Assembly (NCBI GenBank): GCA_963678255.2
Contig: CAXXTW010000002.1
Coordinates: 990,260-1,054,259, forward strand
Length of the DNA: 64,000 nucleotides
Source: Candidatus Cloacimonadales bacterium
Lineage (GTDB): Bacteria; Cloacimonadota; Cloacimonadia; Cloacimonadales; WRIO01
Direction of reading: 5' to 3'
Shown here: positions 4,498 through 62,432 of the stretch, in pieces
How positions within the stretch are numbered: position 1 is the stretch's first letter
Layout of the letters: every line of letters begins with the position of its first letter
Notes under the pieces: generated by a model
The model's input: the letters and a program-made list of their open reading frames with translations, nothing else
Told to the model about the DNA's origin: nothing
The model's database searches: none
Translations under genes and position numbers: made by a program

Positions 4498-4507
4498 GGA
4501 GAGAATT

Positions 4508-5017: not shown

Positions 5018-5018
5018 C

Positions 5019-5324: not shown

Positions 5325-5335
5325 AGGAAAGAAGA

Positions 5336-5650: not shown

Positions 5651-5676
5651 ATATGGAAAACATGATAAAGTCTCAT

Positions 5677-5707
5677 AAAACGCTTTCTTTTCTGAGAGCG
5701 TTTTTTA
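5677..5707 (+). terminator. Hairpin plus T-run after fliE. Could be a terminator or an attenuator between the fliE and fliF units.
   Basis: aaaacgctttc-loop-gagagcgtttt followed by tttt. The stem has one mismatch. Confidence 0.45.
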
Positions 5708-5724
5708 TATAAAGAGGTTCTTTA

Positions 5725-44667: not shown

Positions 44668-44683
44668 TGGCATGTACTATGCA
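44668..44683 (+). promoter_or_regulatory. Candidate sigma54 (-24/-12) promoter
   Basis: TGGCATgtactaTGCA has the same GG/GC spacing and the same TGGCAT-N5-ATGCA form as the flgB element. Intergenic, pointing at the 44786-46410 genes. Confidence 0.45.
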
Positions 44684-46587: not shown

Positions 46588-47526
46588 TTTAACTACTAAA
46601 AAGACTAAGATAATTTAATGAACAGGCAGAAACCACGGATTTCACGAATATGCACGGATAGAACACGAATTAGCCACTGAGTTACACTGAGAAACACAGA
46701 GGAACACACCGATAAAAGATTTTCACAACCGCTGCGCTCGAGTACAAGAGAAAAGAGAGAGATGATAACAACTATAATTTTCCTAGTCTTCCTCTAATCC
46801 ACACTAATTTTCAAGAAAGATAAGAACAACCCTCCGGGAACCACCGAGTTTAGCGAATCACACAGAGGAACAACACTTTTTTAACTACTAAAAAGACTAA
46901 GATAATTTAATGAATAGGCTGGAACCACGGATTTCACGAATATGCACGGATAGAACACGAATTAGCCACTGAGTTACACCGAGAAACACAGAGGAACACA
47001 CCGATAAAAGATTTTCACAACCGCTGCGCTCGAGTACAAGAGAAAAGAGAGAGATGATAACAACTATAATTTTCCTAGTCTTCCTCTAATCCACACTAAT
47101 TTTCAAGAAAGATAAGAACAACCCTCCGGGAACCACCGAGTTTAGCGAATCACACAGAGGAACAACACTTTTTTAACTACTAAAAAGACTAAGATAATTT
47201 AATGAACAGGCAGAAACCACGGATTTCACGAATATGCACGGATAGAACACGAATTAGCCACTGAGTTACACTGAGAAACACAGAGGAACACACCGATAAA
47301 AGATTTTCACAACCGCTGCGCTCGAGTACAAGAGAAAAGAGAGAGATGATAACAACTATAATTTTCCTAGTCTACTACTAATCCACACTAATTTTCAAGA
47401 AAGAAAAGAACAACCCTCCGGGAACCACCGAGTTTAACGAATCACACAGAGGAACAACACTTTTTTAACTACTAAAAAGACTAAGATAATTTAATGAATA
47501 GGCTGGAACCACGGATTTCACGAATA
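46588..47526. repeat. 292-bp tandem repeat: 3 full copies plus a 60-bp partial fourth
   Basis: Copy starts (aactactaaaaagactaag...) at 46591, 46883, 47175 and 47467, an exact 292-nt period. Copies are more than 97% identical. Two variants alternate in an A-B-A-B pattern. Confidence 0.92.
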
Positions 47527-47823: not shown

Positions 47824-48158
47824 GTTGAAAGCCCCTGCAGCGCTTACAGGTCAATTCTACTCTTCAAATTGTTCGACGCTAGAGGAATTTAAACAATGTC
47901 GCAACCCCTGCAGCGCTTACAGGTCAATTCTACTCTAAAATCAAAACTATCGTTACTCATAATGGACAATTGTCGCAACCCCTGCAGCGCTTACAGGTCA
48001 ATTCTACTTAACGGTTAAAGTAGACCAAGAGATTAATGCCGAATATGTCGCAACCCCTGCAGCGCTTACAGGTCAATTCTACATACTAGAATATGTCTTA
48101 AAAATGAGACTAAAGTCTTTTAGTCGCAACCCCTGCAGCGCTTACAGGTCAATTCTAC
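47824..48158 (-). CRISPR. CRISPR array 1: 5 repeats, with the leader-distal one degenerate, and 4 spacers
   Basis: 36-nt repeat, plus strand GTCGCAACCCCTGCAGCGCTTACAGGTCAATTCTAC, at 47898, 47972, 48047 and 48123, plus a degenerate copy at 47824. Spacers are 37, 38, 39 and 40 nt. Minus-strand orientation is inferred from the repeat 3' end ...GGGGTTGCGAC and the cas gene direction. Confidence 0.95.
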
Positions 48159-48489: not shown

Positions 48490-48753
48490 TTATAATACAA
48501 TTAGCATTTCATGCTGATCATTAACTGCCACAGCTTTTTGCTCGCAGGATGAACATAAGGTGAAAACATGTATCTTCCCATTCTTCTGGTTGATTTTCTC
48601 CAGTTGATTCATAAACCAATTTATATTCTTTGAGTTGATATTAGCTACAAAAACAGATTCCTGAATCCTTAAACCATGTTTTTCCAAAAACTTTGAGAGA
48701 CGATAACGAATCTTATCATTAGGGATGTCATATGCAATCACTCTTTTCATCAT
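48490..48753 (-). CDS. cas2: CRISPR-associated endoribonuclease Cas2
   Basis: 87 aa. The N-terminal VIAYDIPNDKIRYRLSKFLEKHGLRIQESVF pattern is typical of Cas2. Overlaps the cas1 stop. Confidence 0.9.
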   Translation of the reverse strand: MMKRVIAYDIPNDKIRYRLSKFLEKHGLRIQESVFVANINSKNINWFMNQLEKINQKNGKIHVFTLCSSCEQKAVAVNDQHEMLIVL

Positions 48754-51395
48754 TACCTCAACCGATAGGTTTTATATTCCACACCAAGAACAATGCTATT
48801 ATGCAAAGAACTGACAGTTTCATCCAATAATCCATAATGGGTCATAACTTTATCATGATATTTCAATACCTGATTCATTGACCATTCAAAACGATTGAGA
48901 AACTTTTTAAACCCTTCATTATTTAAACGAGTACATTTGCCACCATGTGTTGAAAAATCAACAAAATCTTCAGGCAGAATCTGATGATTATGGATCAGAT
49001 GCAGGATAACTCTTTCAGGAATAAAACGAAGTGGTTCCATAAGATCTGAAGCAAGGGCTTTATGTAAACCTTTCACTATATGATAAACACCCTCATAAGG
49101 ATAGTATCCTTTACTAATTAATACTTCACAAAGCCTGTTATATAGTAATGTATAACCCAGAGAGAGCATTGCATTAACAGGTCCCACAGGAGGATAGTAT
49201 TCTCTTTTCTCAAAAGGGAATGGGGTTGTCAGTTTTCTGAAATGCCGAAAATACTCTGCAGAGGCTGCTCCTTCTTTCCCACGAATAGAATCAATATTAT
49301 CCATATTTGAGATAGAGTTTAAAATTTCCTGTAACAATTCTGATTTTATCTCTCTCTTTTGAAGCATCATTTTCTGATTATGAATCTTGGCTTCAACGAT
49401 TGTTTTGATAAAATTCATAACAAAGTGATCATAATTGTTGCCTCTTCTCTCAACTAATTCTTTGATATTTATCCATTTGATTATATTGTGAAAAGCACCT
49501 TTGGGATTTCCTAATATATCAGAAAAGATAATTCCTTTTTGATACTCCAAAGCTTTTTTGATAACAGATGCACTAACTCTGGGCTTTCCAATGATTACCA
49601 GCCTTTGAATTTCCTTCCAGGGTATCTTTCTTTTTTCTGAATCCATTTCAATGACAAGCGTTTCCCCCTCCGTCCTGGCATAGGAGTTATAATAAGAAAG
49701 ATAAACAGGAATTCCACCCAATCTGTTTTTATCAAAAAGATGAGTCCAGGTAGGATCAGTATTTTCCTGACATTTAATAGATCTGGCTTCACCATTCTGA
49801 ACCAAATGACCTAAAAATTCAAAAGGAATATTCGGATCAACCTTGACAGTTTTATCAATAGACAGCTTTAAATCATATTTAATCAATACATTTTCTACAA
49901 ACTGAAGGATCTGATCATTATTTTCTTTACTGAGAATAAGAATATCGTCAGCAAAACGTACCATTCGAAAAGGTTTTTTTTGTAAATCCTGATCAAATCC
50001 AATCATATAGATATTCGACAATAAAGGAGACAGGGCATTTCCCTGATTTAACCCGATCTGATCCTCTGTGAAAATTTTTCGAAGAATGCCCAATAGGGGA
50101 TCAAACAGAAACAAAGCCTCTAATATCAGAAATATACTTTTTAAAGGGATACTGTCAAAAAAAGATTCGATATCAACTTTTACACCATATCTAAAGCCTT
50201 GATCATACAGTTCTTTCACTCTTTGCACAGCTTTATGGTAGCCCATTCCGCTTCGATAGGCATAAGAGTCTGAGGACATTAATTCATCACAGGAATTTGC
50301 TAATAATTTAGCTAAATTCTTAAAAACAAAGCGATCAGTGAAATTAAAAACACTTATTGTTCTATATTTGCCATTTTTCTTTTTTTTATGAAAAGTTTGA
50401 AATTCAGAGGGGATAAAGGTATTGTTTTTTAACTTTTCAATTAATTTATTGATATAATCCTCTTTATTTAAAAGCACATCATTCAGGTTAATGCCATCAA
50501 AATCAAGGCTTTCCTGATCCATGTCATTAAGATGCTCTTCTAAATAGGAATGGGTGGTCATCTGCAGAAATAGATTTTTAATAGATCTAAACTCATCATA
50601 AAAGATATCATTCTTTAATGATATTCTATACTGACCAAAACCAAAGCTTGTATTTTTTCCAATACCTGCTGTCTGCCCCCATACCAGCAATTGAATCAAC
50701 TCTTCTGAAAACCTGCCTTTTATAATCAAACTACCAATGATTCCACCTAAAGAATTTTTGTATGCCATATCCACCCAGATGAATTGCTTGTTCGACAGGA
50801 TATATTCAGTAGAAGATTGAAGTTTTTGTCCTGATTTAATCTCAATTATTCTGAGAAAATCATTAAAATTAAAGTAATCAGAATCATAGTATTTATGCCC
50901 CTTTTCTTTATCCTGATCAGGTCTTTTCAGCCTTAAAGGGCTGATGAAGATCACACGAATTTCATCTGATGAAGTTAATTTTTGAAGAGAGTTTTGATCA
51001 AGAGGAAAATTGTATTTCGTGGTTGGATTATTCAAATTTTCATTTGGATCAAGGGCCTTAATGAGTTCAACCGTTTTGTTAATAATGAACTGTCCGGATT
51101 TACCATAATTAACCTGTTCACCGGATTGAACAGCCTGAATCCAGGCTTGAATATTATCAGAAATATCTTCAGGGAAAAACATTAAAAGAGATATCTTGTC
51201 ACCTGGAAAGTATTCAATAATGCCCTTATTTACAGGCAGAATTTTAATGTTACTTTCAGAAAGAACATTAAGCTGAATATTATTCAACCAGGGTCTGATG
51301 GAATGACTTATTCCTGCATACCACTGAACTCCGCTATATAATAAAACATGATCTATTTTTTTTATGCACTTGAATTCCAGTTGAAGGCATTTCAT
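48753..51395 (-). CDS. cas1: Cas6-reverse transcriptase-Cas1 fusion protein. Start set at the ATG at 51395, after a GGAGAAGGGGGG RBS; the track's TTG start is at 51419.
   Basis: Cas6 G-rich loop GIGKNTSFGFGQY. RT motifs: RTISVFNFTDRF, YAYRSGMGYHKAV, VDIESFFDSIP, GLNQGNALSPLLSNIYM, VRFADDILILS. Cas1 region: NAMLSLGYTLLYNRL, ALASDLMEPLRF. Confidence 0.88.
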   Translation of the reverse strand: MKCLQLEFKCIKKIDHVLLYSGVQWYAGISHSIRPWLNNIQLNVLSESNIKILPVNKGIIEYFPGDKISLLMFFPEDISDNIQAWIQAVQSGEQVNYGKSGQFIINKTVELIKALDPNENLNNPTTKYNFPLDQNSLQKLTSSDEIRVIFISPLRLKRPDQDKEKGHKYYDSDYFNFNDFLRIIEIKSGQKLQSSTEYILSNKQFIWVDMAYKNSLGGIIGSLIIKGRFSEELIQLLVWGQTAGIGKNTSFGFGQYRISLKNDIFYDEFRSIKNLFLQMTTHSYLEEHLNDMDQESLDFDGINLNDVLLNKEDYINKLIEKLKNNTFIPSEFQTFHKKKKNGKYRTISVFNFTDRFVFKNLAKLLANSCDELMSSDSYAYRSGMGYHKAVQRVKELYDQGFRYGVKVDIESFFDSIPLKSIFLILEALFLFDPLLGILRKIFTEDQIGLNQGNALSPLLSNIYMIGFDQDLQKKPFRMVRFADDILILSKENNDQILQFVENVLIKYDLKLSIDKTVKVDPNIPFEFLGHLVQNGEARSIKCQENTDPTWTHLFDKNRLGGIPVYLSYYNSYARTEGETLVIEMDSEKRKIPWKEIQRLVIIGKPRVSASVIKKALEYQKGIIFSDILGNPKGAFHNIIKWINIKELVERRGNNYDHFVMNFIKTIVEAKIHNQKMMLQKREIKSELLQEILNSISNMDNIDSIRGKEGAASAEYFRHFRKLTTPFPFEKREYYPPVGPVNAMLSLGYTLLYNRLCEVLISKGYYPYEGVYHIVKGLHKALASDLMEPLRFIPERVILHLIHNHQILPEDFVDFSTHGGKCTRLNNEGFKKFLNRFEWSMNQVLKYHDKVMTHYGLLDETVSSLHNSIVLGVEYKTYRLR

Positions 51396-51636
51396 AGTCC
51401 CCCCTTCTCCTAACTTCAATTAGTTAAACAACAGAATTCAGTAAATCGCAGGATCTAAAAACATCTTTTGGTTTATAAATGTACAATGTACTTCCAGTTG
51501 CGTTTCTTCTGCTCATAAATGTTTCCGGAATATCATGTTACATATCGCAATCCATCATTTAACAATATAAAACTCAGCATCAACCTGATGTTCTCCCACT
51601 CACCAAATTACTTTTTTAAATTATAACTTCAACGAA

Positions 51637-51900
51637 GTTGAAGCCCCTGCAGCGCTTACAGGTCAATTCTACGAAAACGTAGTTTGTGAAAAATTAGAAA
51701 TAAATAAAAAAGTCGCAACCCCTGCAGCGCTTACAGGTCAATTCTACTAAAGAAATATCAATTCAGGCTGAAACAAGGAAAGGCATACTATAGTCGCAAC
51801 CCCTGCAGCGCTTACAGGTCAATTCTACGAATCAAAGGAGGGAACCATCTGAGATACGCAGAAAGTCGCAACCCCTGCAGCGCTTACAGGTCAATTCTAC
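51637..51900 (-). CRISPR. CRISPR array 2: 4 repeats, with the leader-distal one degenerate, and 3 spacers
   Basis: Same 36-nt repeat at 51712, 51793 and 51865, plus a degenerate copy at 51637 (gttgaagcccc...). Spacers are 39, 45 and 36 nt. Confidence 0.95.
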
Positions 51901-52415: not shown

Positions 52416-52445
52416 AAAAAAAAACCCGGGTTTTCACCACGGGAC
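52416..52445 (-). terminator. Weak terminator candidate after the Gly-zipper gene
   Basis: Minus strand has CCCG...CGGG (a short stem) followed by a run of 9 T. Confidence 0.3.
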
Positions 52446-52485: not shown

Positions 52486-53319
52486 TTAATTATCGAAAAT
52501 AGATTTAATAAATGAACAGATCCCTATTCCCACGCCAATAGTAACGGCAATTGGAGTAAGAACCACTGCACCTGTTGCGATTACCCCTGTTGCTCCTATA
52601 GTTGTAAGACCAGTGGCAATTGCCCCACCAGCAAATGTTCCTGCCGCACTTCCAGCTGCTGCTGATATTGCTCCTATTGATGCGCTTTTTGCTACACTAC
52701 CTGCAGCTTCTCCGATGGAGTGTTCTCCGTCAATAACACTTTTTATTTCACAAATAGCCGTTATACCTGCCGAAATTGCAGCACCACCGAAAGCACTTCC
52801 TTTTGCAGCAGTCTTACAGGCATTACCTATTCCCGACAATCCATTAACCCCTGCTTTAGCTGCTAATGCTGAAGTTGTATTTGTTGAGATACCAGATGAA
52901 GTGACTGTTTTTTTAATTCCTTCTTTAGTTAGTTTTTCTCCAATATTTTGGACGGTTTCTTTTGTACCAAAAATCTTTGCGGAATTGTACTGTCCTGATT
53001 TTATTTGCGAAACAACTTTCCCCACTGAAGCAGGAGTATCTTTAGCCTGAATTCGGCTGATGATTTTTCCGCCTTGTTTAACTACGACATCAACAGTTTT
53101 TGCATTAGTACTTTGAGTTAATTGAGCATTAATTCCCTTAATGATATTCAAAGGATTGGCATTAATTCCGTCTTTGATGAGAATTTCATGAATGATTCCT
53201 TTTAATTGTGGATTATTTCCTGCACGATTGAAAGCTTCAGCAATAACTTTTCCTTCATAACCACTTCTGACTGTATTGTTAACGGCACTGGTAAATTGAT
53301 CTTTAGTTCTGTTTTCCAT
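52486..53319 (-). CDS. Membrane protein with a soluble N-terminal domain (about 150 aa) and a Gly/Ala-rich glycine-zipper C-terminal region. Putative CRISPR-associated membrane effector.
   Basis: ATG at 53319, preceded by a GGGAGGG RBS and a sigma54 promoter. The C-terminus GAISAAAGSAAGTFAGGAIATGLTTIGATGVIATGAVVLTPIAVTIGVGIGI contains repeated small-xxx-small motifs. Confidence 0.6.
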   Translation of the reverse strand: MENRTKDQFTSAVNNTVRSGYEGKVIAEAFNRAGNNPQLKGIIHEILIKDGINANPLNIIKGINAQLTQSTNAKTVDVVVKQGGKIISRIQAKDTPASVGKVVSQIKSGQYNSAKIFGTKETVQNIGEKLTKEGIKKTVTSSGISTNTTSALAAKAGVNGLSGIGNACKTAAKGSAFGGAAISAGITAICEIKSVIDGEHSIGEAAGSVAKSASIGAISAAAGSAAGTFAGGAIATGLTTIGATGVIATGAVVLTPIAVTIGVGIGICSFIKSIFDN

Positions 53320-53352
53320 TTTCCCTCCCAAATATTTAATACCATTGTAATT

Positions 53353-53368
53353 TGCAGTACCTGTGCCA
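53353..53368 (-). promoter_or_regulatory. Sigma54 (-24/-12) promoter of the Gly-zipper gene
   Basis: Minus strand reads TGGCACaggtacTGCA, with GG/GC spacing identical to the consensus TGGCAC-N5-TTGCA. It sits about 35 nt upstream of the ATG at 53319, directly downstream of a sigma54-type activator gene. Confidence 0.6.
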
Positions 53369-53439
53369 TTTTATAAAGAAGATTCTAAATATTTTATTAT
53401 TATATAGTTATGTAATAATAGAATCAGATAAGCATAAAC

Positions 53440-53478
53440 TATAGATTGATAAAATACACTTAAAGTTTATAATCTATA
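53440..53478. promoter_or_regulatory. Candidate upstream activator site (imperfect inverted repeat)
   Basis: TATAGATTgATAAAa-N9-AGTTTATAATCTATA, centred about 95 nt upstream of the -24 element. The AT-rich context makes a chance occurrence plausible. Confidence 0.25.
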
Positions 53479-53507
53479 ACTCAAATTTTTACAAATAGTA
53501 ATATTTA

Positions 53508-55085
53508 TTACTTATCTTTGTTAGATGTTTTATTGTGGTAGTCTTTGAGCCATTTCGATAAAGCTTGTGGAGTTATTTTTAAGACTTCAGCGACAAGATT
53601 TTGTTTTCCATTATATTGATTGAGCAAACAGTTAATAGCTTTAAATCTTATTTGGGCAATTTCCTTATCTAAATCAATAAAATCATTTTTCTCCATAACA
53701 ATGTTTAAATCATCCTGTATTGGGAAATGTAGAGTATCTGGTAAATCAGTAAAGAAATCCTGATGAAATACATTTTGCTTTAAGACTGTTTTATTAATCA
53801 TAATGTCATCTGAATTAAAACAGCATCTTTTTATTACAAATTGTAATTCTCTAATATTTCCTTTCCAGAGGTATTTTTTTATAAACTCTTGACCTTCATC
53901 ATTCAACACTTTTTCTACATAAGATTTATTCATTTTTTTAAATTCATTGTTACATTTTGTAAGAATCTCTTTGGCTATTTCTATAACATCTGTGCGCGTT
54001 CTCAAAGGTGGCAGATCAATCACAACATCAGCCAGCCGATAATAAAGGTCTGGTCTGAGTTTTTGAGGACTATGAGTGGCAGATATAATTCTAACATCAA
54101 CCCCTATATCCTCTACAGAACCAACTTTTTTTATTTTTTTTTCCTGGATGGCTCTCAGTAGTTTGACTTGTGAAGTTTCAGGCAAATCACCGATCTCATC
54201 AATGAATAATGTCCCTCCGTTCGCAGACTCAATTAATCCAATTTTTTCTTTATCTGCACCGGTAAAAGCACCTTTGACATGACCAAATAATTCTGATTCT
54301 ATAAGAGTCTCAGAAATGGCGGAAATGTTAAATTCTACAAAGTTATTTTTTCGTTTTGTTGTTTTCTCATATATTTTTCTGGCATAGTATCCTTTTCCAG
54401 TTCCTGTTTCACCTAAAATTAAGACATTTACATTATTGTAACAAGAAAGTTTATCTACCATTAAATTAATAGCGTTTATCTTAGGATCCGAACATTCTTT
54501 ATTAATAAAATCAGTCATTTTTGAATCTATATCCAAATAAGATTCTTCATGCTTTTTTAAATTCTCTTTCATCCTCTTCAATTTGATATCCAACTCAAGC
54601 GGGATAACATATTTCTCACATTTTGTTACATCATTTTTTTTATCATACCAGGATTGAAGTAACGAGGCTCGATTTTTTGCTATGGAGATCAAAGTCCAAC
54701 AAACCTTCATAATATCTGTTCCTGATGTTGTGTTAAAACTGAGATCATCATCAATTTGAAGAAAACCCTCGTTATACAGATTAGTAATTGCATTTTCAGT
54801 CATTCTGAACACAGCATTTATATCTGCAGCATTGAATTTATCTGTTTGATAGCTTTCGATCTTTTTGTAAGGAAATGCCTTTCTCAATGCATCAAGATAT
54901 TCTTTAAAAGACTCATAATGCCAATTATCCTTCTTATTTTGCTGATCATCTAACACAATTACTTTTTGAAAATCAAAAGTATTTGAGAATAACAAAGCTT
55001 CCAGAGGTGCCATTCTATTTTTCATTTCAATTTTGGTTTCAAAGTCATGAAACCCCAACCAGGAGATTAAACAATTTTTTTGCAC
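53508..55085 (-). CDS. RtcR-like transcriptional activator: N-terminal CARF-type sensor domain, sigma54-interaction AAA+ domain, C-terminal helix-turn-helix (HTH)
   Basis: GTG start after an AAGAGG RBS. N-terminal CLISWLGFHDF and FNTTSGTDIMKVCWTLI parallel the E. coli RtcR ITTGTHVAQICWFLL segment. LILGETGTGKG (Walker A), ESELFGHVKGAFTGA, GGTLFIDEIGDL (Walker B). C-terminal QNLVAEVLKITPQALSKWLK (HTH). Confidence 0.8.
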   Translation of the reverse strand: MQKNCLISWLGFHDFETKIEMKNRMAPLEALLFSNTFDFQKVIVLDDQQNKKDNWHYESFKEYLDALRKAFPYKKIESYQTDKFNAADINAVFRMTENAITNLYNEGFLQIDDDLSFNTTSGTDIMKVCWTLISIAKNRASLLQSWYDKKNDVTKCEKYVIPLELDIKLKRMKENLKKHEESYLDIDSKMTDFINKECSDPKINAINLMVDKLSCYNNVNVLILGETGTGKGYYARKIYEKTTKRKNNFVEFNISAISETLIESELFGHVKGAFTGADKEKIGLIESANGGTLFIDEIGDLPETSQVKLLRAIQEKKIKKVGSVEDIGVDVRIISATHSPQKLRPDLYYRLADVVIDLPPLRTRTDVIEIAKEILTKCNNEFKKMNKSYVEKVLNDEGQEFIKKYLWKGNIRELQFVIKRCCFNSDDIMINKTVLKQNVFHQDFFTDLPDTLHFPIQDDLNIVMEKNDFIDLDKEIAQIRFKAINCLLNQYNGKQNLVAEVLKITPQALSKWLKDYHNKTSNKDK

Positions 55086-55094
55086 AAAGACCTC

Positions 55095-56735
55095 TTATAA
55101 AACTATCTGTATTATTAAATGTATCAAGTCCAAACCGATTTCCCTTTCGGGAGTTAAATGATTAAAATCTTCACCATAAACATTTTTTGCGATCGTATGA
55201 AAGATTGTATCTTCAATTAACAGGGATTTTTCGAAGTTAAGGATATCTTCCCATTTGTATTGATCGCTGTTTATTTTTCTCATGATATCATTATATAGTC
55301 GGGTTATTTTTAAAAAATGAAGAATATTTTCTCTGATTTTAAAATTCCCTAATTGAGACATCCCCCGATGTATGAAAAAGTTTCTTTCATCTCTAAATTT
55401 TTGATAATTTCCTGTATAAATTAAACGAAATTTCTGATAAATATTTTTATTTTGTTTTAAAAATAAGGGTTTAAACTTTAGATTAAATTCATCAATAAGT
55501 TTTTGAAATTCTTGATTATTCGGACTATCTATCAGTTTATCAATCAGATTTATATTTATATCCTGTTCGAAGCCATTAATCAGTATTTTTTTCTCTTTAT
55601 CTGTAAAGAGTGAAGGATCAATATGTTTTTTTATGATAAATCTGAAATACTGATCTTCCAAAGAAACCAAAAAGACCGAAGCGGTTATAAAATCATCTTT
55701 GTAGATTGAGGAAAAAAACAAGGAAAAAAGATTGTAAAACCAGTTTTCCTTATTTTCTTTAAAATCTTTGATTTTTTTAAATAAAGCTTCGATGTCATTA
55801 AGAACAGGTTGATTGAGCTCAGTATTGACATAATTCTTTAATAGATTGTATTTTCTATCCGCATCATAAAAATCGTTGTTTTTGACAGACTGTATTAATT
55901 CCTTAAGAATTGTATAATAACTGTTGGCGTTTTTTGTAATCTTTAAGTAAGAAGAACTTTCAGTAATATAAACCGGAATAAGGTTTGCATTAATGAAGCC
56001 TGTATAGAGAATATTTTCAACCGCTTTTTGCAACAGTGGCAGTCCTCCTGCATAAAGTGAAAGGAAAATATTGTTTTCTGAGTCATCCATCTCTGAGAAA
56101 TCGAACAAACTGATGATTTTATTATGAAACTGCCTGGTTAAATAATCAATATTGTTCAAATCAAAGGATTTCAGATAATTCATCATTTGAGATGACGTTT
56201 CTATCACAACATTATTAAAATCTTCCTCGAAAATCTCACCAATTGACAGGATATCCACATCATCAATTTTTATCTTGTGATAGTTAGTAATCTCATCCAT
56301 TTTCATGATTATAAGTTCTGCAGTTTGTTTTGATTTATCATTCTGAATATATTTATTAACAAGATCCTTTGCAAAATCTGAGCAATCCTTCCATTTCTGA
56401 TGAAGTGATTCCTCTTTTGCTTTATTTATTAAAGTGAGATTATTTCTTCTATCTGTGACAATTAAAATTAGCTTATGAATATGGTTTTTACTGTGAATAT
56501 CTTTCAAGGCACTTAGATTTTTACTCAACATGGGAAAATCTAAACCTTTTAAATCTAACTCTTTTGTTTCTAACTTTTCTTTTTTTGGATTGATCTCTAT
56601 ATTGGTTTGCAAAAAAGGTAAAGAAACAAGATCTTTGATGTTTGAATTATTTATCTCTATACGAGTCAAATTCCCCTCATGATCAACAACTCCCATGCAG
56701 TCCCTTTGTCCTATGGTCATAAATAAAAGATTCAT
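55095..56735 (-). CDS. Csx1/Csm6-like ancillary protein with a C-terminal HEPN RNase motif. The N-terminal sensor domain is possibly CARF.
   Basis: HEPN R-x4-H motif in the Csx1-like context ERNFFIHRG. N-terminal MNLLFMTIGQRD resembles the first CARF strand. Translationally coupled (TAATG) to the effector operon. Confidence 0.55.
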   Translation of the reverse strand: MNLLFMTIGQRDCMGVVDHEGNLTRIEINNSNIKDLVSLPFLQTNIEINPKKEKLETKELDLKGLDFPMLSKNLSALKDIHSKNHIHKLILIVTDRRNNLTLINKAKEESLHQKWKDCSDFAKDLVNKYIQNDKSKQTAELIIMKMDEITNYHKIKIDDVDILSIGEIFEEDFNNVVIETSSQMMNYLKSFDLNNIDYLTRQFHNKIISLFDFSEMDDSENNIFLSLYAGGLPLLQKAVENILYTGFINANLIPVYITESSSYLKITKNANSYYTILKELIQSVKNNDFYDADRKYNLLKNYVNTELNQPVLNDIEALFKKIKDFKENKENWFYNLFSLFFSSIYKDDFITASVFLVSLEDQYFRFIIKKHIDPSLFTDKEKKILINGFEQDININLIDKLIDSPNNQEFQKLIDEFNLKFKPLFLKQNKNIYQKFRLIYTGNYQKFRDERNFFIHRGMSQLGNFKIRENILHFLKITRLYNDIMRKINSDQYKWEDILNFEKSLLIEDTIFHTIAKNVYGEDFNHLTPEREIGLDLIHLIIQIVL

Positions 56736-58717
56736 TAAAATCTCCTTTGATTTTGAGAGGGTTTGTTTTTAGGTTTAGGTTTATTAGAAACTAAGCTTTT
56801 TTCAGAAGACCCTGATCTTAGTTTAAAATCATCTGCTCTGATCTCAGAATGCCATTTCGGAATTTCACCATCTCTCTGAGGATAAGAAAATTCTTTTGTT
56901 TTTAATTTAAAAGAATCCTTCAGTTCTGATTTGTTTTCAAAAGAATGAGCATTAATAAAATCCAAGGGATTGAATGATTTTTGGTTTAATTTTGAATCCA
57001 GCACTATCATTTGATCGATAAATATCTTTACTGCCCCTAAACCGTAATTTTTACCATATCCTATTTGATGACATAATATATTTTCGTTTTCATACTGAGT
57101 GAATAAATCATTTTTTTTCTTATCATCAAGCTGAAGAGAAAAGCATAAAAGAGATAATTCATCTTGTGTTAAGTTGTTAAAATGCAACTTGAATTTAAAT
57201 TCTGGAAAAGAGTCTAAATTGTTCTTAATATTATGTGGTCTCACAACTTTCTTGAGACAGATCATCATTTTCTGATCTTCATCGGTTAATGATATGGGAA
57301 GATAATTTTTTGAGGAGCGTTTGTAAACTTTACGCCCGGATAAGACGGCTTTGTCGTGATCCTCTCTTGCCCGATCTCCATAAGTGATTAATGGTTTCTC
57401 TTCATTATCTGATTCTTCCTGTTTAAGATAAAACTCATAAGCACTTGGCATGGGTTGACCTGGTCTTTTGAGATTAAACCCATTTCTATCAATACTTCCT
57501 CCGGATATATATTGTGCATAATTGATGTGAATCTTTCCTGCTTTAGAATTTTGCACCTTATCTTTGTGGTTTTCATGTTTCAGCATATCTTCTTTAGTGA
57601 AACCGAACATTTCATAAAACCTGGAAATTCTGATTTCGTCATTTATTGTTTTGAAGAATTCATCTTTCAGATTATTCTTAACAATATCCTCCAAACTGTT
57701 TTGGTAAAGCCAAAGGTAATAGAAGTTTTTTCCAAAGGAAATAATCTGATCTTGTTCAGCATCATATTGAAAAATTATCGGTTCTCCGACTTTAAAGATT
57801 CGCATTTTCTCAATATTCTCTTTTATTTCTTTTTTTTCATCTTCATTAAAGTGAAAAGGATGTTTATTAACAAATCCGGATCCTAACTCATCAATAGTTT
57901 TATGATAATGATCTAAAATGTCCTGGTTCACTTTTAATTTTAAATGATCACCAAATTTTATAGCATCCGTAAATTTTTTTTTATTGAATCCAATACAATT
58001 ATGATGCTTTAACTTTGAGTTATTCTCTTTATCATGCTCTAAAAATTTATCAACCGTAAGTCCGTTTCCGACCCATCCATCAGGATAACTAAAGAAATAA
58101 TATGCTGTTTTACTATTACCAATCTTTATATTAGTCTCGTGTAATTTTTCGATATCTTTTTCATTAAATGAATTTAGTAATGGGTTTAAAGAAATATTTT
58201 TTAATGAAGAATCTTCGAACTTCAGAAGACCATCAATCGGCAGAATTTCCATACTGTCTTTTAAAACTTTAGTTATTATCCCGGCTCCGGTTATTAATCT
58301 TTTATTATCTTTGTTATCATGAAGTTTTGTGTATATATTGATGTTTGGTCTCATCATAAAAGATTGTTGATTAATTTTCCTAATGGGGACATTCAAATAT
58401 TGTTTCACGAAGGAAGCAACGGCTCCCTTTAAAGTATGAGGAGAGATTAGTATTTTATTGTTCATTTCCAAGGGATTGATGACAGTATATTCATTCTCTT
58501 GATCTTCATTTTCTTTCTTGGTGAGATTTCCAACTATTAAATGATTTAATGCATACAGGGAACAGTTGATAGACCCCGAATACAATTCCTCATCCCCTTT
58601 TAATATTTTATTGAATTCGGCAATGTTAACATAATCAGAATCTTCATGAGCTTTGACAGGTATAAAAGAATAGACTAAATTATCTTTAGCGGTTTTGATT
58701 TTATTATAAAGAGTCAT
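56735..58717 (-). CDS. Type III RAMP protein, Cas7 with a large insertion (Cas7-insertion-like)
   Basis: YSFIPV...YSGSINCSLYALNHLIVGN, PHTLKGAVASF, and G-rich loop GYGKNYGLGAV. Start set at the ATG at 58717, after a GGAGA RBS; the track start is 58747. Confidence 0.6.
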   Translation of the reverse strand: MTLYNKIKTAKDNLVYSFIPVKAHEDSDYVNIAEFNKILKGDEELYSGSINCSLYALNHLIVGNLTKKENEDQENEYTVINPLEMNNKILISPHTLKGAVASFVKQYLNVPIRKINQQSFMMRPNINIYTKLHDNKDNKRLITGAGIITKVLKDSMEILPIDGLLKFEDSSLKNISLNPLLNSFNEKDIEKLHETNIKIGNSKTAYYFFSYPDGWVGNGLTVDKFLEHDKENNSKLKHHNCIGFNKKKFTDAIKFGDHLKLKVNQDILDHYHKTIDELGSGFVNKHPFHFNEDEKKEIKENIEKMRIFKVGEPIIFQYDAEQDQIISFGKNFYYLWLYQNSLEDIVKNNLKDEFFKTINDEIRISRFYEMFGFTKEDMLKHENHKDKVQNSKAGKIHINYAQYISGGSIDRNGFNLKRPGQPMPSAYEFYLKQEESDNEEKPLITYGDRAREDHDKAVLSGRKVYKRSSKNYLPISLTDEDQKMMICLKKVVRPHNIKNNLDSFPEFKFKLHFNNLTQDELSLLCFSLQLDDKKKNDLFTQYENENILCHQIGYGKNYGLGAVKIFIDQMIVLDSKLNQKSFNPLDFINAHSFENKSELKDSFKLKTKEFSYPQRDGEIPKWHSEIRADDFKLRSGSSEKSLVSNKPKPKNKPSQNQRRF

Positions 58718-59132
58718 GATATAATCTCCAATTGTTTTTCTCGTCAATGAGAATGGTTAATGATTCATTTGGGATGTTTTTAAGTATTCCCAATTCATCA
58801 GCATATGCGTAACGCTTTTTATTATTCTTAATCGATCTAACAGTTACTTTTTTTACATTCTCATCAGATAATGATAATGTTTTAATAACTTCAAAATAGA
58901 CATCCCTATCTTGCAGGTAATAAGATCTCTGTTCATTTTCATTAAACAAAACAAGAATACTTAAATCTTTGATGCTTTGAAGTGTAATTTTGACATCCTT
59001 AGTAATAAAGAACATCCCGGCATGATCATTTCCCAGATTGTTTCTTAATTGATCGGTCCAGCCTCTTTCTCCAATAGCCCAATCACTGTTTTTAATTTTT
59101 TCTATCATATCAGTAAAAGATATTTTATTCAT
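58704..59132 (-). CDS. Small type III-D accessory subunit, Csx19-like by position
   Basis: 142 aa, located between two RAMP genes as in fused-subunit III-D loci. Has a GGAG RBS. No motif I can verify. Confidence 0.35.
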   Translation of the reverse strand: MNKISFTDMIEKIKNSDWAIGERGWTDQLRNNLGNDHAGMFFITKDVKITLQSIKDLSILVLFNENEQRSYYLQDRDVYFEVIKTLSLSDENVKKVTVRSIKNNKKRYAYADELGILKNIPNESLTILIDEKNNWRLYHDSL

Positions 59133-60414
59133 GATTCAGCTCCAATTCCCAAATAGGATAAGTTGAATGAGCTCCCAGAGAAATAACCCGGGCTTTCATT
59201 CCATTATTTATTAATTCAAACATTTGTTTCATTTCATCATTCCAGTCTTTTTTGTAAATTTTAATAAATCCTGAAAATGAGGTATAAAACAATGCTTCCT
59301 CATCAAACTTTGATGATCCTAAAACTGCTCTGGTAAATTCATCCTGAGCATGGTGATTGATGACAGCCAAATGATCCTTATTAAAGTTGTCTGGATAAAA
59401 ATCAGATATATATACCTTTCCTGCTGTTGCTTCTTTTTCTTCAGTTTGACCAAAAAAAATCTCGTTCCATTGAATATGACCATACTTTTCTAAAAATGCC
59501 GTAATAACCCCTTTAACCGATGAACCAGGAATTAGCAAACGAGTTCCATTATTCATAAAAACAGCATCTGGTTCAATATCATCTTTATTTCCAAGACTAA
59601 ACATAGCCTCTCCACCTCTTATCAGAAGAGTGTTGGTACCATACCCATCTGCTTCATCTTTTATAATTATCCTGAGAGGAATCTCAACAAATAGATTATT
59701 ATGTACTTTATTGTTGTCATCGTTAATATTCACATCTTTTTTCGGATAACAATTAAAACTTTTAAGAATAGCCCAACCACAACCGGAGCTTGAAAAAGCT
59801 CCAATAAACAGACCATCCTTTTCCCACGAGTTGAAGACTTTTTCAGCCCATGTTTTTAACAGATCAATATCCCATTTTTTAATATCATTTTCTGAAGCTG
59901 TAGGAACAATATCAGATGAGTCAAAATCAACAGGCAGATACTTGTCGGTATTGATAGTCATTTCCAAAGTCATCATAACTGGATTTTCATCTAATTCATA
60001 GGGTTCAATTTCCCAATGCGAAAACTTTGCTTTATCTTCAGCAGTTTTTCTGGATCTGTTAATTTTCACCCTGTCTCTGATAGCCGGTTTAACTTTTGCC
60101 ATATTAAAGAAATAAGTTGAAAACTCATAAGGACTTGAGAATGATTTCAAATCTGTTTCCCTTTCCTGATTACCTGACTCCTGATGATCAGCTGGAACGA
60201 TTTTTTTGTATTGATCAGTTGATTTTTCATTCTCTGTTAAGAGCTGATCAAGTCTATCAAAAAAAAGACCGGCAATACTGGTTCCGGGAATGATAAACTC
60301 ACCTTTTCCATTTCTGACCATATTTGCGGCACCTAAAGCATCTTCAATCAATCCGGAGCCAATATGAAGTGCTGTTTTCAATTGGATATCCAACTTATAT
60401 TTTATCTTACTCAT
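59125..60414 (-). CDS. Double-Cas7 RAMP fusion (Cas7-2x-like; Csm3/Cmr4 family)
   Basis: Two RAMP cores: LKTALHIGSG...FIIPGTSIAGLF and LLIPGSSVKGVITAFL. Confidence 0.65.
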   Translation of the reverse strand: MSKIKYKLDIQLKTALHIGSGLIEDALGAANMVRNGKGEFIIPGTSIAGLFFDRLDQLLTENEKSTDQYKKIVPADHQESGNQERETDLKSFSSPYEFSTYFFNMAKVKPAIRDRVKINRSRKTAEDKAKFSHWEIEPYELDENPVMMTLEMTINTDKYLPVDFDSSDIVPTASENDIKKWDIDLLKTWAEKVFNSWEKDGLFIGAFSSSGCGWAILKSFNCYPKKDVNINDDNNKVHNNLFVEIPLRIIIKDEADGYGTNTLLIRGGEAMFSLGNKDDIEPDAVFMNNGTRLLIPGSSVKGVITAFLEKYGHIQWNEIFFGQTEEKEATAGKVYISDFYPDNFNKDHLAVINHHAQDEFTRAVLGSSKFDEEALFYTSFSGFIKIYKKDWNDEMKQMFELINNGMKARVISLGAHSTYPIWELELNHE

Positions 60415-62419
60415 TATCTTCTCCTTTCAGAACTTCTCTGAGAATGAACCCTAAGATTTCATAATTGGATATGTTTGTTAACATTTTATTTAAAAGATCA
60501 AAAAGAAGATTATGATCTTTAACTTTTACTTTTTTCTCTTTTAGTAAATCATAAATAATGTTCAAGGGTGTACCAGCTTCAACGAATGTTAAAGTGTAGC
60601 GCAAGATTCTTTTCCATCGTTTCAAAGTCTTCATTGCTTTTAATTGATCAGAATAACTTTTCTTACAATCATGTTTTTGGGACATTTTAAGACAGAAATC
60701 ATCCTGTCTGGGAATATAGATCTCAGGGTTATCTGAGTTTTGGTTCTGGTTATTTATGCTATGTACAGGGTGGTTGATTCTTACCTTACCAAATCCTTCA
60801 TTTTTTCGTAAACCGATGCCTTTATCTAAAAGTTGTTTAAGATTGGCACGGTCTTCAGGAGATAAATTTATCAATTTATATTCAAAAACACTCCCGGCTT
60901 TGATTGCTTTCACCCCAAATCGACGGGTTCCACTTAATCCATGAAATGAATGAATAATCCTTGTTTCTGAATTGTGTCTCTTTAAAACGATTTTTTGATC
61001 TTCTGTAAGATGAATCTCTTTTGCAAAGTATCCCGGTTTAATGATTGAAGCAAAACTGCCATTTTCTTCGAGTAAAATCGCATCAGATTGTAAAGTCAAT
61101 ATGAAAATATCTTTATCTATGACAGAATCTTGGCTTATCTCAGTAAAGTAATAATCAAATATTTCAACAGGTTTTGACCCTCTGCCCAAATGCAGCCAGA
61201 CATTTTTATCTAACCATGGTTTCATTAGTCTTAAAAACGTATGTAAATCTTCATTATTTTGAAAAGTAACTGTCCCCTGAAAATAATTATTCTTCAATAC
61301 CTTCTCTTCTGTAAAAAGTGACTGATCACTTACAGCCTGTGTAGAGCTATCTATTTTATTCCTCATTTGAATTGTAACCGGAACAGAATAATAACTCATA
61401 TCTCCGTTTTTATTGATCAGATATCCACCAGAAAAACTTTTATTGGATTCGTTATTGTTTTTATCATTGATAAACTCATCTTTATCAATTTTATTCCCTA
61501 ATGATTTCAACGCCCAATGTGGTATGGGTTGATCTTTAAATCCATCCTTTTTCTTCTTTCTAGCAGTGAAAGGAATAGGGATAATATCAGGATTTTGATT
61601 CTGATCTTTAAAATAATTGATACAGTCAAAAGGAATAGGCAGAAAATTACTTACCATGATTCTCGAATCATTTAACATTGATAAATCCTGATCAGTTTTT
61701 GCCAAATGTACTCTCAGCATACCCAGCACGCTTGTACCGCTGAAATAATCTAAAGTTCTATAATGATTATTGTTAAGTAATGCGCCATCTGCAATGGTTA
61801 CGTTATCCTTTAATTGTAATATCAAACTGATGGAATTAGCAGAACTTTCAGACAAGGTAGCTTCATCAAAAGAATATTCATCAATACGGTGAACTATGTT
61901 TGATATAGAAATTTTCCCAATACCTCTGGTTCTGCTTCCACCAACTCTTTGAAGATTTAGTAAACTTTCTATTAACAAATCAGAAATTTTGTTTAAATCT
62001 ACAGAATCATTTGCCAGATATCTGATTTCACCATTAAATGAGCACCCTTTTTTAAGGCATTCAATGCTTCGTAAAGACTTATCTGTTGATTTACGGGTAT
62101 TTCTATCAATTCTGGTAAAGGTATGAATAATAAAGGGATATTCATCATCCTTTTTGTTATAACTGATTAAAATATCAAGAGATTGTTGATTTTTGTAGAA
62201 AAATAAGTTTGAATATTCAGATTTAAATTCAGGTTTTTGATGGATGATTTCATGAGCTGATTGCCTTAATAATCCTTTAAAGGTATCAAAGTTGAATATG
62301 GGGTCACCGTTATGATCTTTTGTAAAGCCATCATCATAAAGCCCCGGACAATTAAGCCCATTGCCAAGATGAATATCTTCCAAAGTTTCTATACTAAAGT
62401 TGATGTTTAATATTTTCAT
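60407..62419 (-). CDS. Multi-domain RAMP fusion, Cas7-Cas5-Cas11-like
   Basis: First RAMP: IHLGNG...FKGLLRQSAHE and GGSRTRGIGKISI. Second RAMP: FSGTSVLGMLRVHL and LRKNEGFGKVRI. Helical C-terminal tail of about 120 aa. Start set at the ATG at 62419, after an AAGGAGA RBS. Confidence 0.55.
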   Translation of the reverse strand: MKILNINFSIETLEDIHLGNGLNCPGLYDDGFTKDHNGDPIFNFDTFKGLLRQSAHEIIHQKPEFKSEYSNLFFYKNQQSLDILISYNKKDDEYPFIIHTFTRIDRNTRKSTDKSLRSIECLKKGCSFNGEIRYLANDSVDLNKISDLLIESLLNLQRVGGSRTRGIGKISISNIVHRIDEYSFDEATLSESSANSISLILQLKDNVTIADGALLNNNHYRTLDYFSGTSVLGMLRVHLAKTDQDLSMLNDSRIMVSNFLPIPFDCINYFKDQNQNPDIIPIPFTARKKKKDGFKDQPIPHWALKSLGNKIDKDEFINDKNNNESNKSFSGGYLINKNGDMSYYSVPVTIQMRNKIDSSTQAVSDQSLFTEEKVLKNNYFQGTVTFQNNEDLHTFLRLMKPWLDKNVWLHLGRGSKPVEIFDYYFTEISQDSVIDKDIFILTLQSDAILLEENGSFASIIKPGYFAKEIHLTEDQKIVLKRHNSETRIIHSFHGLSGTRRFGVKAIKAGSVFEYKLINLSPEDRANLKQLLDKGIGLRKNEGFGKVRINHPVHSINNQNQNSDNPEIYIPRQDDFCLKMSQKHDCKKSYSDQLKAMKTLKRWKRILRYTLTFVEAGTPLNIIYDLLKEKKVKVKDHNLLFDLLNKMLTNISNYEILGFILREVLKGEDNE

Positions 62420-62432
62420 AATTATTCTCCTT

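Follow-up and report, generated by a model that had tools for sequence, protein, structure and literature searches.

The window analysed here is the whole 64,000-nucleotide (nt) stretch of Candidatus Cloacimonadales DNA given above (contig CAXXTW010000002.1), and the subject is a unit of three parts within its type III-D CRISPR locus: a gene for a 525-residue (aa) sigma-54 activator of the RtcR-like class, which closes the cas operon, a near-consensus sigma-54 promoter directly after it, and the gene for a 277-aa, putatively tail-anchored membrane protein which this promoter would serve. That the unit as a whole is a transcriptional output arm of the signalling-type type III-D system in this member of the Cloacimonadota is a proposition to which we give even chances. 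Taken separately, it is probable that the regulator switches on the promoter beside it and in this way governs production of the 277-aa protein, and evenly balanced whether its input comes from type III activity. The latter is proposed because the regulator belongs to the cas operon, because type III genes are recurrent neighbours of its relatives and because the fold of its CARF domain is of the type that binds cyclic oligoadenylates (cOA). That the host belongs to the Cloacimonadota is borne out by the ValRS encoded in the window, which shares 61-69% identity with Candidatus Cloacimonadota MAGs and about 50% or less with all others. A sequence-only reading of this DNA had described the three elements as standing back to back on the minus strand; their coordinates hold, and a CRISPR array and a Cas6-RT-Cas1 gene (RT, reverse transcriptase) lie downstream. 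The parts of the unit are as follows.

53508..55085, minus strand: 525-aa RtcR-like regulator with CARF, sigma-54 AAA+ and helix-turn-helix (HTH) domains (PADLOC RtcR_PspF2--CARF_AAA_HTH)
54591..55085, minus strand: CARF domain, about residues 1-165 (profile, AlphaFold2 (AF2) and Foldseek matches)
54018..54464, minus strand: sigma-54 interaction AAA+ domain, residues 208-356 (PF00158; PDB matches ZraR, NtrC1 and PspF)
53541..53648, minus strand: C-terminal Fis-type HTH, about residues 480-515, aligned with the HTH of PF02954-carrying relatives and inside the NCBIfam RtcR and PADLOC alignments
53369..53507, minus strand: AT-rich region, expected place of the activator-binding site, with an imperfect inverted repeat at 53390-53409 / 53437-53456
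53353..53368, minus strand: predicted sigma-54 -24/-12 promoter TGGCAC-aggta-CTGCA (TGGCACAGGTACTGCA), 33 nt upstream of the ATG at 53319
52486..53319, minus strand: 277-aa gene, putative tail-anchored protein and predicted sigma-54-dependent output
52855..53277, minus strand: its N-terminal globular domain, about residues 15-155, with a predicted restriction-endonuclease-like fold
52489..52854, minus strand: its Gly/Ala/Ser/Thr-rich C-terminal region, residues 156-277 (Kyte-Doolittle profile and composition)
52416..52443, minus strand: terminator-like hairpin and, after it, nine consecutive U, about 45 nt past the stop of the 277-aa gene

The CARF-sigma-54 regulator

The regulator matches Pfam Sigma54_activat (PF00158) at 3.4e-53, with the AAA lid also found, and its Walker A sequence GETGTGKG, GAFTGA loop and Walker B sequence FIDEIGDL occupy columns that are invariant in the alignment of its relatives. 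PADLOC RtcR_PspF2--CARF_AAA_HTH (PDLC01995) is matched at 1.9e-101, residues 4-517 lying on positions 2-479 of a profile of 481. The best NCBIfam model is RtcR (NF038308, residues 3-510), at 251.5 bits against an equivalog cutoff of 650, and the Pfam RtcR N-domain is found at 0.0056 and 16.6 bits, below the cutoff of 23.1. Neither rtcA nor rtcB lies beside the gene, the remainder of the window not having been exhaustively screened for them. The earlier claim of a complete RtcR-like activator, with sigma-54 AAA+ motifs and a C-terminal HTH, is thus borne out by PF00158, the RtcR model and the HTH alignment, and because the score falls below the cutoff and no rtcBA adjoins, the protein, as judged from its sequence, belongs among the RtcR-like enhancer-binding proteins with a CARF domain and is not an RtcR orthologue. 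A homology search with the full-length regulator was dominated by generic sigma-54 AAA+ domains, the N-domain being covered in 6 of the 120 matches listed; the same search with the N-domain alone gave no matches, and genome scans for the regulator returned only generic activators or loci already collected.

Assignment of the N-terminal domain comes from three directions. A profile of seven N-domains finds the CARF domain of the cA6-dependent Csm6 (6tug at 2.4e-4, 8pcw at 2.9e-4) through both signature motifs, and the corresponding regions, LISWLGFHD and TTSGTDIM, are kept in the aligned relatives of the regulator. The AF2 model has a pLDDT of 81, a pTM of 0.81 and a predicted b-a-b-a-b-a-b-a-b-b topology, and every one of its top 50 Foldseek matches in the PDB is a CARF domain, from a cOA-binding effector or a ring nuclease (best E 3.5e-6), with best TM-scores of 0.72-0.74 to the cA6-bound Csm6 of E. 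italicus (EiCsm6). Whether this domain folds as CARF was the first check named by the sequence-only reading; profile, model and Foldseek agree, and on the predicted structure the N-domain is a CARF fold.

The promoter and its recurrence

In the site TGGCACAGGTACTGCA the spacing is the canonical GG-N10-GC and 10 of the 11 specified consensus positions agree, and the ATG at 53319 is preceded by a strong ribosome-binding site, GGGAGGG. The near-consensus -24/-12 promoter that had been read in the gap below the regulator therefore stands, with a gap of 188 nt to this ATG, or 176 nt to the TTG at 53331 of the mechanical open reading frame (ORF). It is the sole site in the window with no more than one mismatch, and because 0.63 such sites are expected per window by chance this uniqueness is not significant by itself. 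Equally good sites occur at 6.6e-6 per nt in 3.0 Mb of related loci, from which a probability of about 0.001 follows for the gap between regulator and 277-aa gene and for this strand. The significance of the inverted repeat upstream (53390-53409 / 53437-53456) is not established in DNA so rich in AT.

Sites scoring at least 8/11 number 23 in the window and just three of these are intergenic, all of the form TGGCAY-N5-xTGCA and each upstream of a gene start. One of them (TGGCAT-aggca-ATGCA, 4045-4060, plus strand) is found about 24 nt before flgB, and a sigma-54 promoter before flagellar rod genes is a classic arrangement. Because of this similar site the use of sigma-54 in the Cloacimonadota host, including for flagellar gene expression, is suggested at the sequence level; rpoN is not in the 64-kb window. 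The flgB gene heads a flgB-flgC-(101 aa)-fliE-fliF-fliG-(fliH?)-fliI cluster at 4084-10406. The third intergenic site (TGGCAT-gtact-ATGCA, 44668-44683, plus strand) precedes by about 100 nt an ORF of 41 codons that has a strong ribosome-binding site (ATG at 44787), with a 14-nt hairpin (ggataatcctatag/ctataggattatcc-like) in between, and is followed further downstream by a 104-aa ORF and then by a 390-aa protein with a type IX secretion system (T9SS) sorting domain.

It could be argued that the -24/-12 match is fortuitous in DNA so rich in AT, that the 277-aa gene depends on a sigma-70 promoter or on read-through for its transcription and that the regulator acts elsewhere in the genome. The expectation of 0.63 sites per window leaves room for this, sigma-70-like hexamers are as common as in shuffled sequence, and the inverted repeat is not demonstrably significant. 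The position-specific probability of about 0.001 speaks against it, as do the placing of all three intergenic sites upstream of gene starts, one of them flgB, and the recurrence of a site in three further independent regulator-linked lineages, with a perfect site in another locus (L011, below). We consider a chance juxtaposition extremely unlikely.

For the comparison across loci the window proteins were searched by tblastn against 131 loci, the independence of lineages being judged by clustering at 80% identity. The regulator and the 277-aa family occur together in five lineages including the window, the others being the L012 type (including L054), L016/L057, L053 and L056. The two genes are divergent in the L012 type, L016/L057 and L053, and co-directional in L056 and the window. 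The contigs of L016 and L056 are too short to show whether cas genes lie nearby.

Upstream of 277-aa homologues in general no site of at least 9/11 was found. Promoters were compared at fixed spacing and a threshold lowered to 8/11, after the regulator-linked loci had been split from the regulator-less ones; a signal emerged only under these conditions. Such a site stands 23-53 nt before the predicted start (28-42 nt from start codons as read) in four of the five regulator-linked lineages, and precedes regulator-less family genes in 7 of 119 matches (3 lineages), against a background of 4% per 120 nt. The enrichment in regulator-linked lineages has a binomial P of 1.5e-5, or 2.9e-4 when the window is left out. 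The sites concerned are TGGCTC-N5-TGGCT in both L016/L057 and L053 and TGGAAT-N5-TTGCG in L056. That equivalent sites recur specifically in regulator-linked loci argues, from the sequence, that transcriptional control matters there. In the L012 unit (also L013, L015, L052 and L054) an HNH gene (PF13392, 1.5e-13; 5338-5637) lies between the regulator and the small-protein gene, and the TGGAAC...TTGC element there was rejected as a sigma-54 site on its GG-N8-GC spacing.

The closest homologue of the regulator among the matches listed is P0061 (41% identity), from an Endomicrobiaceae locus, L011, where it is divergent from a Cas10 homologue and where no 277-aa homologue is present. Of all sigma-54 sites in the 3 Mb of loci the only perfect one (11/11) is in L011, where it precedes by 34 nt an EcsC-family membrane-protein gene adjoining the regulator; a second site there, of 9/11, stands 38 nt ahead of an operon of five genes, one of them for a 164-aa protein that has a coiled coil and a hydrophobic N-terminus rich in Gly, Ala and Thr. 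Because the L011 sites precede different membrane-protein genes, the sequences indicate that a combination of CARF-sigma-54 regulator, sigma-54 promoter and small membrane protein is recurrent beside type III systems, with varied outputs. The stretch concerned (2724-5828 of L011, which equals L048) encodes an EcsC-family protein, a 64-aa single-helix protein, two paralogous coiled-coil proteins and three further small proteins.

In the window the 277-aa gene is monocistronic between its predicted promoter and the terminator-like hairpin that follows it (a 7-pair stem, -13.3 kcal/mol over a 63-nt stretch, z = -1.8). Rfam finds no known RNA between 44 and 56 kb of the window.

The 277-aa protein and its family

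No sequence match to the 277-aa protein is found in Pfam, NCBIfam, PHROG or the PDB, and its one hit, to the PADLOC candidate defence family PDC-M72B, is weak (2e-5). Its N-terminal domain is modelled by AF2 with a pLDDT above 90 over most of its length, and E45, D77, Q91-x-K93, D94, Y111 and E121-T122 are invariant in the family alignment. The top Foldseek matches in the PDB are EcoT38I (probability 0.99), YaeQ, MspJI, the Can2 nuclease domain, NucC and SduA, those to Can2 and NucC being weak (E 0.3-2), and in BFVD they are phage restriction endonucleases (Mrr-like), VRR-NUC and ERCC4. In the model E45 is on helix 1, D77 at the start of strand 2, and Q91-x-K93 with D94 at the end of strand 3, which are the catalytic positions of the PD-(D/E)xK fold.

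Residues 156-277 consist to 55-60% of Gly, Ala, Ser and Thr, with Ala, Gly, Ile, Ser and Thr dominant and 34 small-xxx-small motifs in 122 residues. Transmembrane hydrophobicity (Kyte-Doolittle above 1.6) is reached only in the last 25-30 residues or so, with a helix at about 240-272 and then a conserved acidic tail. The glycine-zipper families of Pfam do not match the protein; some homologues have a weak precomputed MamC match. The Gly/Ala-rich, zipper-like hydrophobic C-terminus described in the sequence-only reading is therefore right as to composition and as to a single hydrophobic terminal helix, and had overlooked the conserved N-terminal domain of 155 residues. The model suggests a tail-anchored membrane protein with a cytoplasmic nuclease-like domain, the activity of which could be nucleolytic, membrane-perturbing or both. 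Of the membrane-perturbing output that had been proposed the putative membrane anchor thus remains, although the protein is not simply a glycine zipper, since a domain of predicted PD-(D/E)xK-like fold is conserved. A 145-aa Ala/Pro-rich ORF on the plus strand (52613-53050), antisense to the Gly/Ala-rich part of the gene, is almost certainly a mirror artefact.

About 59 homologues were found in the protein collection and about 90 unique complete ones in the collected loci, nearly all of 273-290 aa and sharing one architecture across phyla. In a census of these small proteins, made with naive ORF calling and two cas reference sets, 48 clusters formed at 80% identity, 35 of them with at least 5 kb of flank; at least 10 of the 35 stand beside type III effector genes, and 15 of 35 (a lower bound) do so when Cas1 and Cas2 are counted. 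Family members lie with type III genes and without the regulator in Cloacimonadota (L006/L014, L007/L008, L044-47/L058) and in numerous loci of Firmicutes, Synergistota and Proteobacteria. Among the most frequent neighbour families of the remaining loci are a Card1-like endonuclease, Cas6, TIR, WCX and radical SAM, and the immediate neighbours of the family include Cas1, Cas6, the NE0113 CARF family and the Card1-like endonuclease. Transcription factors were considered as general neighbours of the family and are not supported. The question raised earlier, whether the two genes keep company with type III loci elsewhere, receives a positive answer, as both the regulator subfamily and the 277-aa family are found beside type III cas genes in other genomes. 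The family is apparently, to judge from its sequences and their surroundings, a conserved, phylogenetically broad and undescribed type III-associated one. Because it is conserved and broad, accompanies type III or cOA-effector genes and is absent from the models searched and the surveys consulted, it is a candidate ancillary effector, and from neighbours and architecture a toxic or dormancy-inducing product is plausible.

Such a distribution would also suit a protein that is itself signal-responsive, its N-domain binding the messenger in the manner of NucC or Csx23, with the regulator only tuning abundance or controlling something else. Most family members are indeed in type III or cOA-effector neighbourhoods that have no sigma-54 regulator, the N-domain has many invariant polar residues within an architecture that is uniform across phyla, the nuclease domains of NucC and Can2 are among its structural matches, and no terminator shields the 277-aa gene from read-through of the cas operon. 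Yet searches of the protein against Pfam, NCBIfam, PADLOC and the PDB reveal neither a CARF nor a SAVED domain nor any other known sensor, the structural match to NucC is weak (E about 2), and the -24/-12 sites are specific to the regulator-adjacent lineages. A directly responsive effector is compatible with transcriptional control and does not exclude it; as the explanation of the unit in place of such control we find it quite unlikely.

By analogy with PspF and PspA, the output might instead be protective, a membrane protein that stabilises or repairs the envelope or guards it against the cell's own immune effectors. The PADLOC family name groups the regulators with PspF, the literature names PspF as a close homologue that governs a response to membrane stress (PMC4012209), and the genes beside the L011 regulator that sigma-54 would drive encode small membrane and coiled-coil proteins. 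A nuclease-like domain with an invariant D...QxK has no obvious protective role, however, no search gave any similarity to PspA/IM30, and the family neighbours are typical immune effectors, so that a protective output seems very improbable.

Two further settings of the family may be recorded. Two paralogues in tandem, of 274 and 273 aa (L006 8516-10822, equal to L014; also L055), precede another variant of type III-D, which comprises Cas6, Cas10, RAMPs and Csx19, with a SAVED-domain protein nearby on the other strand. At 6694-9025 of L009 a phage holin (Phage_holin_4_1), an M15 peptidase and a 144-aa gene come first and then a homologue with 42% identity to the 277-aa protein, with recombinase and transposase genes close by, a context like that of a lysis cassette and at odds with the CRISPR association. 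A role in phage lysis was not adopted: there are no PHROG matches, one viral contig was found, and the L009 context is a single case.

Input, proposed mechanism and known systems

The remainder of the type III-D locus, again on the minus strand throughout, is given below in the order of transcription.

62433..63977, minus strand: Cas10, 514 aa, which opens the type III-D effector operon and starts no more than 23 nt from the window end
60407..62449, minus strand: Csx10/Cas5-IIID fused with a Cas7-like RAMP, 680 aa (PADLOC Cas5_IIId 2.7e-35; NCBIfam Csx10 3.8e-16)
59125..60414, minus strand: double Cas7 (RAMP), 429 aa (Pfam RAMPs 6.8e-22 in two stretches; PADLOC Cas7_IIId 5.1e-25)
58704..59132, minus strand: 142-aa protein in the small-subunit position, no family match in Pfam, NCBIfam or PADLOC
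56735..58747, minus strand: large type III-D Cas7 of the TIGR03986 family, 670 aa (NCBIfam TIGR03986 3.9e-48, above cutoff; PADLOC Csm3/Cas7_IIId)
55095..56735, minus strand: 546-aa protein with an invariant RNxLIHxG (HEPN-type Rx4H) near its C-terminus
51637..51900, minus strand: CRISPR array 1, 4 repeats of 36 nt
48753..51419, minus strand: Cas6-RT-Cas1 fusion, the adaptation module (Pfam Cas_Cas1 1.4e-52, RVT_1 4.7e-28, CRISPR_Cas6 2.3e-8)
47825..48158, minus strand: CRISPR array 2, 5 repeats, the repeat identical to that of array 1

From Cas10 to the regulator neighbouring genes overlap or are at most 9 nt apart, the regulator being the last gene, 9 nt after that for the 546-aa protein. 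Cas10 is recognised by PADLOC (Cas10 4.4e-56, Cas10d 1.8e-46) and by Pfam Cas10-Cmr2_palm2, and direct reading places its cyclase motif GGDD, the retention of which had been claimed, at residues 308-311; no HD motif was seen on direct reading across its 514 residues. Because Cas10 keeps GGDD and no HD motif accompanies it, the immunity of this locus is probably signalling-dependent, and the cyclase motif, Csx10/Cas5 and multiple Cas7 proteins together place it in the signalling type of III-D. The 142-aa protein has a tblastn match to a 162-aa gene at the equivalent position in L007/L008 and so is kept in related loci.

The 546-aa protein is of a rare family, with 23 representative clusters in 1.8 billion, and its R451, N452 and H456 are invariant across 21 members. 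It has no Pfam or PDB sequence matches. Its description as a neighbouring HEPN RNase can thus be kept as far as the invariant RNxxxH motif goes, and finds no other support. CARF-like N-terminal motifs are seen in this protein and are unproven; in a profile-profile comparison with the regulator CARF only the first motif aligned (hhalign probability 8%), and on this value and the lack of PDB or Pfam matches a CARF assignment was not accepted. Two paralogues of the 546-aa type occupy the equivalent position in L007/L008, L044-47 and L053, standing in tandem at the operon end (L007 10915-14147, L044 2134-5368, L053 11370-14612); the window has one copy, with the regulator taking the next position.

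The regulator subfamily is found with type III loci in three of the lineages whose flanks are long enough, namely the window, L053 and L011. All three parts come together in L053, which has Cas6-RT-Cas1, Cas2, the regulator, the small protein, two 546-aa-type genes and Cas7 genes.

These associations have to be set against an autonomous reading of the pair, as a portable two-gene module that senses RNA damage or stress, fires without Cas10, and owes its position to the clustering of defence islands. The L012 pair of regulator and small protein, which has no cas genes about it, is in a Mu/TniB transposon-borne island (its neighbours are Mu-transposase/TniB genes, a 1432-aa TPR-ATPase, a 533-aa AAA protein and an SNF2-NOV_C helicase), a context that matches the restriction-modification (R-M) or CoCoNuT-type setting of RtcR-like regulators. 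Such regulators are reported not to be typically near cas genes, to be linked to R-M systems and CoCoNuTs and to have a predicted cyclic-phosphate RNA ligand (PMC4012209, PMC11090510), the only RtcR to have been characterised binds tRNA halves that carry a 2',3'-cyclic phosphate at the end (PMC7790460), and the basic residue expected after strand 4 is missing from the regulator CARF. Against an autonomous module are the place of the window regulator as the last gene of the cas operon at a spacing of 9 nt, the type III loci in three of the lineages with enough flank, the strong type III association of the 277-aa family taken alone, and the CARF model, which superposes best on cOA-binding domains. 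It would moreover merge in part with an arm driven by type III activity if a type III-activated HEPN RNase supplies the RNA ends. We judge an autonomous module unlikely, though seriously to be considered.

A course of events for an output arm driven by the type III system can be proposed. In uninfected cells the CARF domain would hold the AAA+ domain back from assembly, as in RtcR, where CARF regulates the AAA+ domain negatively and ligand binding promotes oligomerisation (PMC7790460). Recognition of foreign RNA by the type III complex would lead a ligand to accumulate, binding of which to CARF would let the AAA+ ring form, and ATP hydrolysis would then open the sigma-54 closed complex at TGGCAC-N5-CTGCA so that the 277-aa protein is made de novo. 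Inserted in the membrane by its C-terminal helix, it would act as a late and costly effector, through membrane perturbation, membrane-proximal cleavage of nucleic acid or both, with dormancy or abortive infection as the outcome. Sigma-54 promoters are essentially silent without their activator, a property that fits a toxic product and gives the response both a delay and a threshold.

The ligand may be a cOA, to which the similarity to cOA-binding CARFs in the predicted structure and a cyclase-competent Cas10 point, or it may be RNA with a 2',3'-cyclic phosphate, for which the analogy with RtcR, the absent basic residue, the cas-less L012 pair and the HEPN-motif neighbour can be cited; both possibilities meet if the RNA ends are the work of an RNase that cOA activates. 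A bolder form of the proposal holds that some type III systems have a sigma-54 effector arm in which a CARF activator reads the Cas10 messenger directly and drives membrane-targeted effectors from a silent promoter, with the 277-aa proteins as a widespread and unnamed ancillary effector family from Cloacimonadota to gut Firmicutes. This is possible, and falls short of even chances.

Several findings weigh against an arm of this kind. The regulator CARF has no basic residue after strand 4 (SGTDIM), a residue typical of nucleotide-binding CARFs and missing in the RtcR branch (PMC4012209), and the only characterised RtcR binds RNA ends, tRNA halves with a terminal 2',3'-cyclic phosphate, and not cOA (PMC7790460). 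Because the regulator and small-protein pair is also present in L012, amid Mu/TniB transposition genes and without cas genes, the coupling to Cas10 signalling is inferred, as indeed is everything in the model beyond the existence and co-occurrence of its parts. The L012 type is also the largest regulator-linked lineage, and with its inserted HNH ORF has only the GG-N8-GC element. Since most members of the 277-aa family are in type III loci without a sigma-54 regulator, sigma-54 gating would be an add-on in a minority of lineages and the protein must be controllable in some other way. No terminator-like site was found on this strand between regulator and promoter, so that read-through from the cas operon could give a basal expression that is awkward for a strongly toxic product. 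Finally the nuclease-fold matches, consistent among themselves, are individually weak (best E 4.9e-3, none at or below 0.001), and the motif is D...QxK, with Gln in place of the first acidic residue of (D/E)xK.

To our knowledge almost all known type III outputs are pre-made enzymes that cOA activates allosterically, and we know of no RtcR-like regulator of a defence operon that has been put to experiment. The wiring had been called unusual, which now needs tempering. In 2014 a family of RtcR-like CARF-NtrC-HTH proteins was described that has no link to rtc, accompanies R-M systems and is not typically near cas genes (PMC4012209), and a 2024 paper discusses homologues of RtcR at the head of CoCoNuT and restriction superoperons (PMC11090510), so that RtcR-like regulators of defence have been predicted, and a transcriptional arm of type III immunity is known from CalpL-CalpT-CalpS (PMC11229360). 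The 2024 survey of type III effectors set transcription factors aside (PMC11229360); neither RtcR nor sigma-54 is mentioned in the 2022 CARF/SAVED review (PMC9704534) or the 2025 CRISPR classification (PMC12669027), and the 2020 CARF classification may mention a CRISPR link. In the surveyed literature the transcriptional routes described for type III systems are Csa3 and CalpL/T/S only. What the window holds is apparently a known regulator class in a new and well-defined wiring, together with an apparently undescribed type III-associated protein family.

The likeness to RtcR, the rtcBA activator of E. coli and Salmonella, includes the divergent CARF followed by sigma-54 AAA+ and HTH domains, a gene that adjoins a sigma-54 promoter and the same lack of a basic residue after strand 4 (PMC4012209). 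In contrast to RtcR, the window regulator scores below the equivalog cutoff, ends a cas operon and precedes a membrane-protein gene, with no rtcA or rtcB beside it. With the RtcR-like defence regulators it shares a place at the edge of an immune cluster and a predicted sigma-54 switch (PMC4012209, PMC11090510); unlike those of R-M, McrBC and CoCoNuT loci, the regulators of the window, L053 and L011 are inside or beside type III loci, and a promoter and specific output gene can be identified.

CalpL-CalpT-CalpS also carries a type III signal to transcription via an alternative sigma factor (PMC11229360), there by a cA4-activated SAVED-Lon protease which cleaves an anti-sigma factor and so releases an extracytoplasmic function (ECF) sigma factor, whereas in the window CARF is fused to the sigma-54 ATPase and the presumed target gene is adjacent. 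Csa3 likewise couples a CARF sensor to DNA binding, for cA4-responsive regulation in CRISPR loci (PMC9704534), but is a small protein of the sigma-70/archaeal type that regulates cas and repair genes, is found mostly in type I-A loci and has no AAA+ domain, sigma-54 dependence or dedicated effector gene. Cam1, Csx23 and CorA, with the predicted Cam2 and Cam3, are membrane-anchored, type III-encoded and thought to act at the membrane (PMC11229360); they have an N-terminal transmembrane segment and a recognised or proposed ligand-binding soluble domain, where the 277-aa family has a C-terminal helix and a nuclease-like N-domain, and models of the Cam1/Csx23/CorA type in PADLOC, Pfam and NCBIfam do not match it. 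NucC and Can1/Can2/Card1 are type III ancillary effectors with the restriction-endonuclease fold that is predicted for it, Card1-like genes being frequent neighbours of the family, and differ in that the 277-aa protein has no CARF, a D...QxK motif and a membrane anchor, the matches being weak. PspF-PspA is similar in that a sigma-54 activator induces a membrane-associated protein under envelope or phage stress (PMC4012209), but PspF has no sensor domain and is controlled by the binding of PspA, to which, as to IM30, the 277-aa output has no similarity.

Were the proposal true, the unit would be a compact example of immune signalling turned into gene induction, with the tight off-state, threshold and delay of sigma-54, and an immune output obtained by switching a gene on rather than by activating a pre-made enzyme. 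It bears also on whether any CARF of the RtcR branch reads cOA instead of damaged RNA ends. Whatever the regulator does, the 277-aa family, absent from the models searched and the literature surveyed, is a candidate new ancillary effector.

Some features of the adaptation side of the locus complete the description. Arrays 1 and 2 flank the Cas6-RT-Cas1 gene, each with a degenerate repeat at its low-coordinate end, and no cas2 ORF was noticed between them. A tandem 292-bp unit, repeated 3.2 times at 97% identity (46588-47526), is placed between the gene for the T9SS-tail protein and array 2; it looks non-coding and has no Rfam match. In L053 three copies of TGGCTGAAAACATGCA, about 98 nt apart (2026-2236), lie just upstream of or overlap the start of Cas6-RT-Cas1, a short tandem repeat which recalls that of the window near its adaptation module.

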